64,000 nucleotides of DNA from Eledone cirrhosa (taxonomy: Eukaryota). Shown here in pieces: positions 3,452-59,022 of this stretch (position 1 is its first letter; each line of letters starts with the position of its first letter). The notes under the pieces were generated by a model. It was given only the letters and a program-made list of their open reading frames with translations, did not search any database and was not told where the DNA came from. Made by a program: the position numbers and the translations under genes. The DNA is taken from contig OZ024749.1 in NCBI GenBank assembly GCA_964016885.1, positions 40,176,001 through 40,240,000 on the forward strand. Direction: 5' to 3'.

Positions 3452-4158
3452 TATCTCCTTCGACTTAACTAGAGCCCATTAATTTTGCTCCGTTAGAATT
3501 ATTTCAGCATGTATTGGTTGTGCCATAGAGATGTTCACCCTCGTAGCCAGATCTCACTTCGACATAACTAGAACCCATTAATTTTGCTTGGTTTGAATGT
3601 GTTGCCAAGTGTGTTGGTTGTGAAATAAAGATGTTCATCCTCATAACCAAATCTCACTTCGACATAATTAGAACCCATTAATTTTGCTCCGTTAGAATTT
3701 TTCTAATATATGTTGGTTGTGCAGTAGAGATGTTCACCTTCGTAGCCAGATCTCACCTCGACTTAACTGCAACCCGTTAATTTTGATCCGCTAGAAATTG
3801 TTCCAGCATATGTTGGTTGTACAGTAAAGATGTCCATCCTCGTAGCCAGATCTCACTTAGACTTAACTAGAACCCATTAATTTTGCTCCGTTAGAATTGT
3901 TCCTGCATGTATTGGTTGTGCAGTAGAGATGTTAATCCTCGTAGTCAGATCTCACTTAGACTTAACTAGAACCCATTAATTTTGCTCCATTAGAATTGTT
4001 ACTGCATGTATTGGTTGTGCAGTAGAGATGTTAATCCTCGTAGCCAGATCTCACAAGACTTAACTAGAACCCATTAATTTTTCTTGGTTAGAATTGTTCC
4101 AAGATATGTTGATTGTGCAGTATAGATGTTCACACTCGTAGCCAGATCTCACTTTGAT
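3452..4158. repeat. ~99-bp tandem minisatellite, ~7 diverged copies
   Basis: agatctcac...gacttaactagaacccattaattttg recurs every ~99 bp (~3549, 3650, 3748, 3848, 3947, 4046, 4145). Confidence 0.9.
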
Positions 4159-4492
4159 TAAACAGTCAAGAGATGTTTAGAATAATCAGAAATAAAGAAT
4201 GGATAGATTAAGCACTGTTTGAAGGCCATTAATGTTGTTTGGTTAGAATGACTCCAGACTCAAGCATGTGTTAGTTCTGCAATCAAATTATTATTCCATG
4301 TAACTAAATCTCACTTTCGTTCAACACCCAAAAAATGTTTATAGTCAGACATTGCAGTAAAGGATTTCGTATTTTTAATTCTTGATTTAGAAGGGGGGTT
4401 TAAATTCTCCCTGTATTTTCCTGTTTATAATACTATATATATATATAGTGACGAAACATAAGTCAATTGCATGAACTCATAATCCTTTATTT

Positions 4493-14489: not shown

Positions 14490-14811
14490 AACATGCTTAA
14501 CGGCTTAGAGTTATGGCCCTTTGCGTTCTGAGTTCAAATCCCGCCGAGGTTAGCTTTGCCTTTCATCCTTGCGGGGTCGATAAAATCAAGTACCAGTAAT
14601 GCACTGGGGTCGATTCAATAGACTTTCCCTTTCTCCCCAATTAGCTGGCTTTGTGCCAAAAGTAGAAACAATTATTAGAGTATTAGATTGGCAGTATCGG
14701 TAGAGGGTCGGACGTCATGCTTGGCAACATAGAATTACGGCCCTTTACGGTCTGAGTTCAAATCTCGCCACGGTTAGCTTTGCCTTTCATCCTTACGGGT
14801 TCGATAAAATG
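14490..14811 (+). mobile_element. Two SINE A copies (tRNA head plus conserved central domain)
   Basis: A-box-like TGGCAGTATCGG, B box GAGTTCAAATC, central gcctttcatcctt.cggggtcgataaaa. Confidence 0.85.
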
Positions 14812-15341
14812 CCAGTAATGCACTGAGATAATTGCTGGCCTTGTGCTAAAATCAGAAACCATTATTATAAAATAAAGTACCAGTAATGCACTGAGATAAT
14901 TGCTGGCCTTGTGCCAAAATCAGAAACCATTATTATAAAATAAAGTACCAGTAATGCACTGAGATAATTGCTGGCCTTGTGCTAAAATCAGAAACCATTA
15001 TTATAAAATAAAGTACCAGTAATGCACTGAGATAATTGCTGGCCTTGTGCCAAAATCAGAAACCATTATTATAAAATAAAGTACCAGTAATGCACTGAGA
15101 TAATTGCTGGCCTTGTGCCAAAATCAGAAACCATTATTATAAAATAAAGTACCAGTAATGCACTGAGATAATTGCTGGCCTTGTGCCAAAATCAGAAACC
15201 ATTATTATAAAATAAAGTACCAGTAATGCACTGAGATAATTGCTGGCCTTGTGCTAAAATCAGAAACCATTATTATAAAATAAAGTACCAGTAATGCACT
15301 GAGATAATTGCTGGCCTTGTGCTAAAAGTAGAAACAATTAT
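14812..15341 (+). repeat. 68-bp tandem array (~8 units) derived from the SINE A 3' tail
   Basis: ataaagtaccagtaatgcactgagataattgctggccttgtg... at 14872, 14940, 15008, 15076, 15144, 15212, 15280. Confidence 0.92.
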
Positions 15342-17254: not shown

Positions 17255-17841
<587 letters not shown>

Positions 17842-19903: not shown

Positions 19904-20379
19904 TGAGGCCAGCTAACTCTACAGTTAGTGTATGTTGTAATAACATGATATGACTGAGGCCTATATGATTAAAACACCCGAGAAACCTCCTATGAAATAC
20001 AACCACATAAGAGGCCAGCTACATCTACACTCGATGTGTTCCTTAACAACATGAAGGGAATAGGGCTTCTAACATTAAAACACCTGAGAAACCTACAAGT
20101 TACAATCACATAGGAGGCCAGGTGAACCTGCAGAGGCCAGCTACATCTACACTCGATGTGTTCCTTAACAACATGAAGGGAATAGGGCTTCTAACATTAA
20201 AACACCTGAGAAACCTACAAGTTACAATCACATAGGAGGCCAGGTGAACCTGCAGAGGCCAGCTACATCTACACTCGATGTGTTCCTTAACAACATGAAG
20301 GGAATAGGGCTTCTAACATTAAAACGCCTGAGAAACCTACAAGTTACAATCACATAGGAGGCCAGGTGAACCTGCAGAG
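19904..20379. repeat. 122-bp tandem repeat (3 near-identical units plus 1 degenerate)
   Basis: gaggccagctacatctacactcg at 20011, 20133, 20255. Confidence 0.9.
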
Positions 20380-20579
20380 GTGAAAGCAGTAAATTTCAGT
20401 TTTTAATCCTTATTTCAATTACTTTCGTGTTAGTTGGTTTGCGAAGACTTTCTAACATGGAAAACCAACTAAAATCTCCTATAGAAGAGAGTGATACGAA
20501 TATAAACAAACATCTACCACCATCACTACTATCACATTCCTCTCATATTCCTCAGTATCTCTATATACCTGAGATTATT

Positions 20580-23239: not shown

Positions 23240-23524
23240 CATTCACACACATATACATACACACACACACATACACACATATCCATACCGATACATATAT
23301 AAATACATATACACACATACATACGCAAACACACACGCACACATATACATATACAATCATTCTTATACATACATATCTACATGGATGCATACACATATAC
23401 ACTCAGTCCTGAAGGTCATCATCGTAATTCAAAATGGCGTGTTGGCAACATGTACATATGTGCATATAGTACTGCATGTGTGTGCGTTCATGTGTATATG
23501 GGTACACACATATATACGTGTGTG

Positions 23525-23560
<36 letters not shown>

Positions 23561-23563
<3 letters not shown>

Positions 23564-26469
23564 TGGAATAAATGCTCTGAAATAGCGATATATATGTGAA
23601 TATAGACATAGAATATTCGAAAATATTCTGTATGTTTATAATAAACATTTTGAAGACCTAATCGCTATAGAATAGAATACGTCACGTATTACAATTAGAT
23701 TCTCGATAAAAGCAAGGGAAGTAAATCTACGCGTTTCATTCTTATTAGAAATCGTCAGGACTACATATCCAGTGCTTTTATCGAGAATGACACAGCTAGA
23801 GACTTATAGAATACTTAGCTGTGTACAGGAACTGGTTTGAAAGAGCGGTTGCCGGTCCGGCAGAAATTAGAAATTGGAATAAATGCTCTGAAATAGCGAT
23901 ATATATGTGAATATAGACATAGAATATTCGAAAATATTCTGTATGTTTATAATAAACATTTTGAAGACCTAATCGCTATAGAATAGAATACGTCACGTAT
24001 TACAATTAGATTCTCGATAAAAGCAAGGGAAGTAAATCTACGCGTTTCATTCTTATTAGAAATCGTCAGGACTACATATCCAGTGCTTTTATCGAGAATG
24101 ACACAGCTAGAGACTTATAGAATACTTAGCTGTGTACAGGAACTGGTTTGAAAGAGCGGTTGCCGGTCCGGCAGAAATTAGAAATTGGAATAAATGCTCT
24201 GAATATTTTCGAATATGCTCTGAATATATTCTATAGCGATTAGGTCTTCAAAATGTTTATTATAAACATACAGAATATTTTCGAATATTCTATGTCTATA
24301 TTCACATATATATCGCTATTTCAGAGCATTTATTCCAATTTCTAATTTCTGCCGGACCGGCAACCGCTCTTTCAAACCAGTTCCTGTACACAGCTAAGTA
24401 TTCTATAAGTCTCTAGCTGTGTCATTCTCGATAAAAGCACTGGATATGTAGTCCTGACGATTTCTAATAAGAATGAAACGCGTAGATTTACTTCCCTTGC
24501 TTTTATCGAGAATCTAATTGTAATACGTGACGTATTCTATTCTATAGCGATTAGGTCTTCAAAATGTTTATTATAAACATACAGAATATTTTCGAATATT
24601 CTATGTCTATATTCACATATATATCGCTATTTCAGAGCATTTATTCCAATTTCTAATTTCTGCCGGACCGGCAACCGCTCTTTCAAACCAGTTCCTGTAC
24701 ACAGCTAAGTATTCTATAAGTCTCTAGCTGTGTCATTCTCGATAAAAGCACTGGATATGTAGTCCTGACGATTTCTAATAAGAATGAAACGCGTAGATTT
24801 ACTTCCCTTGCTTTTATCGAGAATCTAATTGTAATACGTGACGTATTCTATTCTATAGCGATTAGGTCTTCAAAATGTTTATTATAAACATACAGAATAT
24901 TTTCGAATATTCTATGTCTATATTCACATATATATCGCTATTTCAGAGCATTTATTCCAATTTCTAATTTCTGCCGGACCGGCAACCGCTCTTTCAAACC
25001 AGTTCCTGTACACAGCTAAGTATTCTATAAGTCTCTAGCTGTGTCATTCTCGATAAAAGCACTGGATATGTAGTCCTGACGATTTCTAATAAGAATGAAA
25101 CGCGTAGATTTACTTCCCTTGCTTTTATCGAGAATCTAATTGTAATACGTGACGTATTCTATTCTATAGCGATTAGGTCTTCAAAATGTTTATTATAAAC
25201 ATACAGAATATTTTCGAATATTCTATGTCTATATTCACATATATATCGCTATTTCAGAGCATTTATTCCAATTTCTAATTTCTGCCGGACCGGCAACCGC
25301 TCTTTCAAACCAGTTCCTGTACACAGCTAAGTATTCTATAAGTCTCTAGCTGTGTCATTCTCGATAAAAGCACTGGATATGTAGTCCTGACGATTTCTAA
25401 TAAGAATGAAACGCGTAGATTTACTTCCCTTGCTTTTATCGAGAATCTAATTGTAATACGTGACGTATTCTATTCTATAGCGATTAGGTCTTCAAAATGT
25501 TTATTATAAACATACAGAATATTTTCGAATATTCTATGTCTATATTCACATATATATCGCTATTTCAGAGCATTTATTCCAATTTCTAATTTCTGCCGGA
25601 CCGGCAACCGCTCTTTCAAACCAGTTCCTGTACACAGCTAAGTATTCTATAAGTCTCTAGCTGTGTCATTCTCGATAAAAGCACTGGATATGTAGTCCTG
25701 ACGATTTCTAATAAGAATGAAACGCGTAGATTTACTTCCCTTGCTTTTATCGAGAATCTAATTGTAATACGTGACGTATTCTATTCTATAGCGATTAGGT
25801 CTTCAAAATGTTTATTATAAACATACAGAATATTTTCGAATATTCTATGTCTATATTCACATATATATCGCTATTTCAGAGCATTTATTCCAATTTCTAA
25901 TTTCTGCCGGACCGGCAACCGCTCTTTCAAACCAGTTCCTGTACACAGCTAAGTATTCTATAAGTCTCTAGCTGTGTCATTCTCGATAAAAGCACTGGAT
26001 ATGTAGTCCTGACGATTTCTAATAAGAATGAAACGCGTAGATTTACTTCCCTTGCTTTTATCGAGAATCTAATTGTAATACGTGACGTATTCTATTCTAT
26101 AGCGATTAGGTCTTCAAAATGTTTATTATAAACATACAGAATATTTTCGAATATTCTATGTCTATATTCACATATATATCGCTATTTCAGAGCATTTATT
26201 CCAATTTCTAATTTCTGCCGGACCGGCAACCGCTCTTTCAAACCAGTTCCTGTACACAGCTAAGTATTCTATAAGTCTCTAGCTGTGTCATTCTCGATAA
26301 AAGCACTGGATATGTAGTCCTGACGATTTCTAATAAGAATGAAACGCGTAGATTTACTTCCCTTGCTTTTATCGAGAATCTAATTGTAATACGTGACGTA
26401 TTCTATTCTATAGCGATTAGGTCTTCAAAATGTTTATTATAAACATACAGAATATTTTCGAATATTCTA

Positions 26470-26476
<7 letters not shown>
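23561..26476. mobile_element. 311-bp tandem array of HHR-bearing units (retrozyme / Penelope pLTR-like): ~2 units on minus then ~7.2 on plus
   Basis: Exact 311-bp period; CTGACGA at 24454, 24765, 25076, 25387, 25698, 26009, 26320 (+) and 23752-23758, 24063-24069 (-); inversion junction ~24200-24235; (TA)n on both flanks. Confidence 0.93.
24424..24513 (+). ncRNA. Type I hammerhead ribozyme (representative of the 9 array copies)
   Basis: gtagtc CTGACGA t-ttct-aata-agaa-t GAAACGCGTA gatttac; palindromic stem III ACGCGU, GUA site at 24484; stem I extended by a perfect 16-bp helix attctcgataaaagca/tgcttttatcgagaat. Confidence 0.88.
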
Positions 26477-26513
<37 letters not shown>

Positions 26514-26555
26514 AAATATTTATAAATGGAAACTATATTTATAAAACCATATTTA

Positions 26556-26617
26556 TTTCATTATACATATTTCAAGGGCCACCAAGGCAAACTATGGTGC
26601 GCTTTCATCAGATAAAA
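26556..26617 (-). ncRNA. Type I minimal hammerhead ribozyme
   Basis: Reverse complement: ttttat CTGATGA aagcgcacca...tggtggccctt GAAA TATGTATA atgaaa. Confidence 0.78.
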
Positions 26618-26680
26618 TATATTTTGCTTGTTGTATCCCAACAAATTAAATATAACCTCTACATATATATATATATATAT

Positions 26681-26784
<104 letters not shown>

Positions 26785-26913: not shown

Positions 26914-26951
26914 GCCCTGATGAGTCCTTAATAGGACGAAACATTGTTGGC
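26914..26951 (+). ncRNA. Canonical minimal hammerhead ribozyme
   Basis: gcc CTGATGA GTCC-ttaata-GGAC GAAACA-t-TGTT ggc; canonical G10.1-C11.1; followed by AATAAA; element 26788-26998 lies between TA tracts. Confidence 0.88.
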
Positions 26952-57180: not shown

Positions 57181-57295
<115 letters not shown>

Positions 57296-57344
57296 GATTC
57301 TACAGGACTAGAACTGTTTCATTCTTTAGAAATCATCAGGAATC
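57296..57344 (-). ncRNA. Type I hammerhead ribozyme (family E, inverted arm)
   Basis: Reverse complement: gattc CTGATGA tttctaaagaat GAAACAG ttctagtc CTGTA gaatc. Confidence 0.85.
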
Positions 57345-57363
57345 CTGAATGATTTCTAAAGAA

Positions 57364-57408
57364 TTCCTGATGATTTCTAAAGAATGAAACAGTTCTAGTC
57401 CTGTAGAA
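57364..57408 (+). ncRNA. Type I hammerhead ribozyme (family E)
   Basis: ttc CTGATGA(57367) tttctaaagaat GAAACAG ttctagtc CTGTA gaa; element 57290-57494. Confidence 0.8.
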
Positions 57409-57493
57409 GCTCATCTATATTAAAACTTTTATACTCTGCAATGTATTGAGTACCTTACTTACTGTGGTTACCTCCGATTCAACCCGGAATAAC

Positions 57494-57542
<49 letters not shown>

Positions 57543-58540: not shown

Positions 58541-58571
<31 letters not shown>

Positions 58572-58754
58572 ATAAAGGAATTGTGGTAAGGAACCAGATG
58601 GACTATAACGCACCAGAGTACTCAATACTTAGGGTAGTAGAGTGGGAAATAGGAAAAAGTATGACCCCGACGACAGAGCTCAAGCCGTTTCGACGTGTCC
58701 AGAAATAGCCGTCGAAACGGCTTGAGCTCTGCCGTCGGGGTCATAGTTTTTCCT
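58572..58754. mobile_element. Family F fold-back element
   Basis: Same arms; turn at gacgtgtccagaaatagccgtc. Confidence 0.85.
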
Positions 58755-58824
58755 ATATATATATATATATATATATATTTTTAATAGAAGGAGCTTCTGT
58801 TACCAGAACTTAATATGACACCCA

Positions 58825-58873
58825 GCTTCCTGAAGATTTCATCTGAATGAAACAGTACTAGTCCTGTAGAAGC
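58825..58873 (+). ncRNA. Type I hammerhead ribozyme (family E variant)
   Basis: gcttc CTGAAGA tttcatctgaat GAAACAG tactagtc CTGTA gaagc. Confidence 0.85.
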
Positions 58874-58956
58874 GCCTTCTATTAAAAAAATTTTACTCTG
58901 CCATGTATTGAGTACCTTACTTAATGTGGTTATCCCCGACTCAACCCGGGACCTAC

Positions 58957-59022
<66 letters not shown>

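Follow-up and report, generated by a model that had tools for sequence, protein, structure and literature searches.

A two-armed hammerhead ribozyme array with a Penelope-like insertion layout in Eledone cirrhosa

Layout of the array and its ribozymes

The window analysed here, a 64,000-nt stretch of contig OZ024749.1 (positions 40,176,001 to 40,240,000) from the 3.0-Gb, microsatellite-rich genome of Eledone cirrhosa, contains a tandem array made of two inverted arms that diverge from a short junction, with both element 3' ends pointing outward into (TA)n (Table 1). Unit position 1 was placed at window position 24485, with numbering starting from the predicted ribozyme cut, and the two regions in which the outer ends fall are referred to as the short (unit ~122-140) and long (unit ~157-173) start regions. 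All six complete plus units compared are identical and 311 bp long, and the seven plus motifs have predicted cuts after 24484+311n. A sequence-only reading of this DNA had described identical 311-bp units, nine hammerhead motifs, a strand switch, (TA)n on both flanks and the absence of an ORF; all of this was borne out, the longest frame being an AT-rich one of 30 aa in each unit. It had also called the junction scrambled; the 23 nt resolve into templated pieces of the unit, namely unit sense 103-113 followed by a repeat of the minus arm's last 10 nt. The 3' end of the plus arm merges with the (TA)n.

Table 1. Features of the array, in window coordinates
Feature	Position	Strand	Remarks
Left (TA)n target microsatellite	23525..23559		
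Minus arm, 2.07 units	23560..24203	-	3' end at 23560 = unit 168 (long region); inner 5' end = unit 147
Hammerhead core	23728..23758	-	predicted cut after 23728
Hammerhead core	24039..24069	-	predicted cut after 24039
Junction, 23 nt	24204..24226		short templated unit pieces
Plus arm, 7.24 identical units	24227..26478	+	inner 5' end = unit 54; 3' end = unit 128 (short region)
First of seven type I hammerhead cores	24454..24484	+	then every 311 nt to 26320-26350
Short start region, unit 124-140	24608..24624	+	most (AU)n-like 18-mer region
Long start region, unit 157-173	24641..24657	+	predicted single-stranded linker; target likeness only 1-3 nt
One complete ribozyme domain	24735..24824	+	stem I, internal loop, 16-bp helix (unit 251-266 with 14-29)
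Right (TA)n target microsatellite	26474..26511		first bases common to element end

The ribozyme core has the form CUGACGA...GAAA...GUA, with a stem II closed by U.U, a GUA triplet and a palindromic stem III; the ACGCGU palindrome, the 16-bp helix and the U.U pair are all present in the window units as first described. An Rfam search gave no hammerhead match in the array, and the assignment was made by inspection of the core and stems, which are conserved across subfamilies. The 91-nt ribozyme domain has a folding z-score of -5.8 (-4.0 for the whole unit), and self-pairing of the stem III palindrome was computed at -7.5 kcal/mol. Type I hammerheads with a palindromic stem III are described in PMC4209133 as the common dimer-acting form in animals, and the presence of both features here supports the predicted dimer-type ribozyme. 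The U.U pair at the base of stem II, which the sequence-only reading had called non-canonical, is not unusual: the axolotl retrozyme HHR_Amex2 has the same closure in its published description (PMC7229834), and the pair is A-U in 17 sampled loci of the present family.

Core variants were found in 0/35 fixed compared with 5/79 sporadic changes, and changes in the 16-bp helix preserved pairing in 3/3 fixed compared with 0/5 sporadic cases; the core and the long helix thus appear to be under selection at the RNA level, with the caution that the overall contrast between fixed and sporadic changes is modest (8/32 vs 29/62, p = 0.047) and depends on the predicted fold. When sister subfamilies were compared, the start-site region was the best-conserved part of the unit.

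Elsewhere in the window there are unrelated hammerhead-like motifs at 26917-26945 (+), 26611-26564 (-) and 4543-4502 (-), two of them less than 500 bp from the array, and tandem repeats at 3453-4161 (99 bp), 14804-15341 (68 bp) and 20010-20380 (122 bp). A further hammerhead family, with a nearly identical, U.U-bearing stem II and a tail of ~70 nt, is represented by short two-armed remnants at 57293-57500 and 58757-58965, and no parent ORF was found for it. At locus L101, two palindromic-stem-III hammerhead motifs 511 bp apart (7068 and 7579) possibly represent another tandem family.

A young family with paired outer ends

The family comprises 15,710 exact ribozyme-pattern matches genome-wide, and sequencing run X1 gave a roughly similar ratio of unit depth (~1.3-1.9e5) to unique-flank depth (8). 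Exact end patterns identified 1,059 ends at unit 166 and 1,188 at unit 131 or 140; 186 such ends resolve into 131 loci within the first 222 Mb of contig C1, from which a lower bound of ~1,600 loci genome-wide was extrapolated. Changes confined to single units are rare (3.4e-4 per base), and the family is therefore very young. The earlier claim of a recent insertion is supported. Its low GC content, tandem units within the 170-400 nt range, many dispersed loci and type I hammerhead in every unit are those of non-LTR retrozymes, as is a non-coding sequence without LTR, PBS or PPT, judged from the missing ORF and from arrays that end directly in (TA)n. The unit lacks the RT and GIY-YIG ORF of an autonomous Penelope-like element (PLE).

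Older sister subfamilies (65-70% identity) are likewise tandem and two-armed, with the same two ends as the main family, and they retain the fold, 16 of 72 pairs being changed on both sides among eight sequences. Their ribozymes vary, with either a 4-bp stem III or a U3-A8 core, the latter being already known (PMC4209133). One sister copy lies in the window at 17355-17775 (~62-75% identity); it is two-armed and has a canonical hammerhead with a 4-bp stem III at 17597.

Most insertions consist of two arms with their 3' ends outward into (TA)n, and (TA)n flanks occur at nearly all loci. Scored by sequence, one outer end is short and the other long in 71/71 complete two-armed loci, and no outer end lies at the ribozyme cut; scored by coordinates in the first 222 Mb of C1, 55/55 pairs combine a long with a short end (0 short+short, 0 long+long), and these two locus sets overlap. 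Many loci were picked through one end, with the partner end unconstrained. Loci L129 and L140 (far end beyond the retrieved sequence) and L057 and L135 (N gaps) were excluded from end pairing, and 18 of 24 further paired loci lie outside the sequence counts. Two arms were present in 17/17 loci from the unit search (including the window; a set biased to good long matches), in 18/18 resolved loci picked by the 166 end, in 11 of 15 resolved loci from an end-blind list (four single-armed), in 14 of 20 loci with unpaired short ends (six single-armed) and in 16 of 19 resolved loci with unpaired long ends (three single-armed). A scheme in which the short site is obligatory and used first was dropped because single-armed loci were found both with a short and with a long end.

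The short window is the unit's most (AU)n-like stretch, and flanking sequence often aligns with it through position 140 with 1-3 mismatches. Inner 5' ends are scattered: they depart mildly from uniformity (KS p = 0.017) but avoid no position, and they fall at the ribozyme cut in 3/124 cases (5.2 expected). The two inner ends of a locus lie within 15 nt of one another in 5/62 loci (6.2 expected) and are thus unrelated to each other, while an inner end abuts the start of the other arm in 3 and 4 of 62 loci (6.2 expected); these counts rejected both L1-style abutment and hairpin-symmetric junctions. At most junctions the arms overlap by 0-4 nt (microhomology), with templated filler otherwise, the two arms are of similar length (medians 3.2 and 3.9 units, p = 0.66) and the tail is typically 26-42 nt long. 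The only readable target duplication, of 11 nt, is at L087, where the target is not a repeat. An inverted 5' arm, a one-sided tail and a microsatellite or AT-rich target with a duplication of variable length are features of PLE insertions, and the layout, as judged from its arms and ends, is a Penelope footprint.

MITE-like short fold-back elements, with one short and one long tail-out end, occur between (TA)n at window ~58570-58753 and at L149-L152, and one subfamily motif of this family has 13,321 near-exact matches. At L139:4630-4683, 54 nt of the fold-back family were captured at a retrozyme junction, possibly through a template jump or 5' read-through; in the four loci followed from this capture, no ORF was found.

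Penelope-like elements and a proposed mechanism

More than 10,000 GIY-YIG candidates are present genome-wide. One of them, at L089:3290-8430 (minus), is an apparently intact Neptune-like PLE of ~5 kb with a pLTR-ORF-pLTR structure, in which a 938-aa frame carries RT and GIY-YIG domains (the RT score being just below the Pfam cut-off) and a CX4CxxC linker as in Neptune, and both pLTRs contain a minimal hammerhead with a palindromic stem III (U3-A8). Ends in this family lie 76 or ~143 nt past the cut, and its two-armed copies L094 and L100 have one end of each kind, as do a second autonomous family (L096) and two short families. The L089 family and the retrozyme have only the layout and an 8-nt long-end motif in common.

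Neptune and Naiad, two EN+ PLE groups reported to favour microsatellites, share with the present family an inverted 5'-truncated copy at the 5' end, (TA)n targets and a tail that in those elements measures 30-40 bp and is usually found at one end only (10.1101/2021.04.23.441226); the retrozyme differs in that it has no ORF, that the whole element is one repeated unit, that its tail rule has been counted (71/71) and that each arm can be traced by haplotype. In vitro, both target strands are nicked and extended by a purified PLE protein, which initiates reverse transcription at two internal positions, and these set the genomic 'tail' (PMC11167929). The element concerned, Poseidon from Anolis, resembles in vitro what is seen or proposed for the present family in its two nearby internal starts, its nicking and extension of both strands, its AT-rich target and a hammerhead upstream of the start sites, but neither a strand preference for a site nor homology to the target was reported (PMC11167929). 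Opposite-strand hammerhead pairs in PLE remnants have also been noted (PMC4209133). The present family departs from Poseidon in that one outer end is always short and the other long, and in that its short site is similar to the target sequence. In L1 twin priming, one RNA is likewise primed from the second target strand and microhomology joins the arms, with the first cDNA stopping near the second primer; the retrozyme shows no such abutment, and both of its arms cover the same region of the RNA.

By every feature examined the element is a non-LTR retrozyme in sequence, and it would work like a non-autonomous PLE. We put at roughly 0.7 the probability of the explanation as a whole, namely that a non-coding non-LTR retrozyme is mobilised by a putative Neptune-like helper PLE through nicking of both target strands and synthesis of two cDNAs from two internal sites on one RNA. 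Arrays would be transcribed and, as the signs of selection and knowledge of the family suggest, dimer-type hammerheads would release monomers, some of which may be circularised. A PLE protein would nick both (TA)n strands, consistent with the tail-out arms and the one 11-nt duplication, and cDNA synthesis would be primed by each DNA 3' end from within one shared RNA, at 122-140 for one end, where the AU-rich tract may pair with the target, and at 157-173 for the other; the observed end positions and their strict pairing point to such priming. The cDNAs would span variable numbers of units and their 5' ends would be joined through 0-4 nt of microhomology or templated filler, as observed at the junctions. 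Two defined outer 3' ends combined with unrelated inner 5' ends fit priming from both target strands.

A more specific version is tentative: a dimeric PLE enzyme might hold one retrozyme RNA on which two cDNAs start by rule at different sites, one paired through its AU tract with (TA)n and the other placed by structure, both then rolling independently round a circle, or along a concatemer possibly made RNA-to-RNA. Speaking against the helper, no unit-like pLTR was found among 28 GIY-YIG loci examined of the >10,000 candidates, and an adjoining ORF was absent at 25/25 sister loci. Also weighing against the explanation are the single-armed loci, the differing arms in 3/55 loci and the lack of a strand difference in start site for the anole PLE in vitro.

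Haplotypes, templates and alternative explanations

Among the 55 loci with a full unit in each arm, both arms were of the same haplotype in 52 (0.048 by shuffling), which rejects two independent RNAs drawn from a mixed pool; the arms differ in L122, L136 (by majority only) and L137, and in L122 neither arm, as they stand, can derive from the other by copying. Twenty-four haplotypes were distinguished in 41 loci, 17 of them seen once, and private variants extend through every unit of both arms, up to 22 units, with only 5/85 arms of at least 3 units being mosaic. That many private haplotypes are fixed across whole loci argues for monomer re-expansion, for which rolling reverse transcription on a circle would be the simplest route. 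At L118, 174T>C is restricted to unit 1 in each of the two arms, and with just 7 matches genome-wide its interpretation as a mutational hotspot was rejected; at L136, the haplotype changes after unit 2 in both arms, and a search for the parent array of this mosaic gave nothing usable. These same-register variants indicate that some templates were linear multimers, but such sharing was seen in only 2 loci, compared with 31 variants not shared in 172 units of overlap (complex loci L039, L046, L047 and L109 left out of the register test), and the linear multimer is therefore a minority route.

Taken together with an off-register 14T>C common to both arms of L060, the L118 and L136 variants are inconsistent with a monomer circle having been copied directly at these loci and fit either two readings of one linear multimer or conversion from arm to arm; gene conversion could be an alternative source of shared variants. 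Variants recurring every 7, 4 and 5 units in L060, L146 and L059 may reflect block duplications within arms or multimeric templates. For most insertions the haplotype pattern is probably explained by a monomer circle as template, and for a minority by an uncleaved linear multimer; towards the circle itself we lean without strong conviction. Of the earlier proposal of rolling reverse transcription of a 311-nt circle, the monomer or circle step in the family's life cycle is probably right, but it is not the sole route. Runs X4, X5 and X6, which carry three other organism codes and were aligned to window 23300-26700, each gave one single-haplotype contig of 340 nt (310 + 30), a closed 310-nt cycle that could be either an RNA circle or a collapsed DNA repeat; none of the six runs surveyed is recorded as RNA.

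An alternative interpretation retains two-strand PLE priming but has the template always be an uncleaved linear multimer of an older array, with the hammerhead incidental and haplotypes fixed by DNA-level array turnover. It is favoured by the L118 variant 174T>C, confined to unit 1 in each arm, by the switch after unit 2 in both arms of L136, by the off-register variant of L060 and block duplications of 4, 5 and 7 units, and by the report that unprocessed RNA predominated as substrate in vitro (PMC11167929). We consider it unlikely because the 17 once-seen haplotypes are fixed through both arms while partial spread is limited to 5/85 arms, because unshared variants far outnumber the two same-register loci, because linear copying by itself can merely shorten arrays and because the core and helix appear selected. 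Less probable is a single target-primed cDNA whose second arm arose by fold-back priming, as the sequence-only reading had proposed, or by copying of the first arm's DNA. Such a history would account for the matching haplotypes and for the variants that L118 and L136 carry in the same register, but the outer ends of both arms are 3' ends of the element, located at two fixed sites inside the unit (the second outer end lies in a defined start region in 71/71 loci), the inner 5' ends are unrelated (5/62 vs 6.2 expected), arm lengths are alike (p = 0.66) and the arms of L122 cannot be derived from one another as they stand.

RNA-to-RNA replication of retrozymes has been raised in PMC7761336, and a viroid-like scheme in which circles are first copied into fresh concatemers, the sole templates for two-strand priming, could cover homogeneous private haplotypes, same-register variants and mosaics by one mechanism; we regard it as quite improbable, since circles and ordinary read-through transcripts would explain the same loci with known steps. 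Least credible of all is an ordinary satellite or an assembly artefact. Assembly of perfect inverted tandem repeats is difficult, and at L109:5440-9752 two copies of one insertion flank or adjoin an N gap, probably through duplication in the assembly. A bridging contig for the window's own junction was found in none of four sequencing runs. Against an artefact, however, the same layout recurs at dozens of dispersed loci with different, unique junctions, fixed ends and private haplotypes, L087 has a target duplication, and 11 other minus-to-plus joints occur in short-read contigs of X1 (possibly the assembly's own sample); this recurrence and these joints argue that the layout is not an assembly artefact.

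The closest known systems are metazoan non-LTR retrozymes (PMC7229834; bioRxiv 10.64898/2026.07.22.740005), which are likewise non-coding, low-GC, dispersed arrays of ~300-nt tandem units with one type I hammerhead and a weak palindromic stem III per unit, in genomes that also contain PLEs. Those descriptions are of direct tandems, whereas the present family mostly has two inverted arms and two fixed internal ends; the published PLE link consists of co-occurrence and pLTR similarity, whereas here it consists of an insertion footprint, with no pLTR similarity found. In the mostly open-access literature searched, neither two-armed retrozyme arrays nor a count of end pairing such as this one was found described. 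Since retrozymes, inverted arms, tails and internal initiation are each known, the present family provides a mechanistic link rather than a new class.

The enzyme that moves animal retrozymes, and its template, are stated to be unknown in PMC7761336 and PMC7229834, and the mechanism of tandem and inverted PLE insertions is called undefined in 10.1101/2021.04.23.441226. The family joins these two questions, and what it contributes is the PLE footprint on a retrozyme, the strict pairing of start sites and the internal markers that tie both arms to one RNA. Both questions become directly testable, since exact nucleotides can be examined on an RNA of 311 nt with a candidate protein, apparently intact, that this genome encodes. 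If the dimeric-enzyme reading is true, the haplotype-marked arrays would be a genome-wide record of the PLE mechanism and direct evidence for the retrotransposition of animal circular RNAs.
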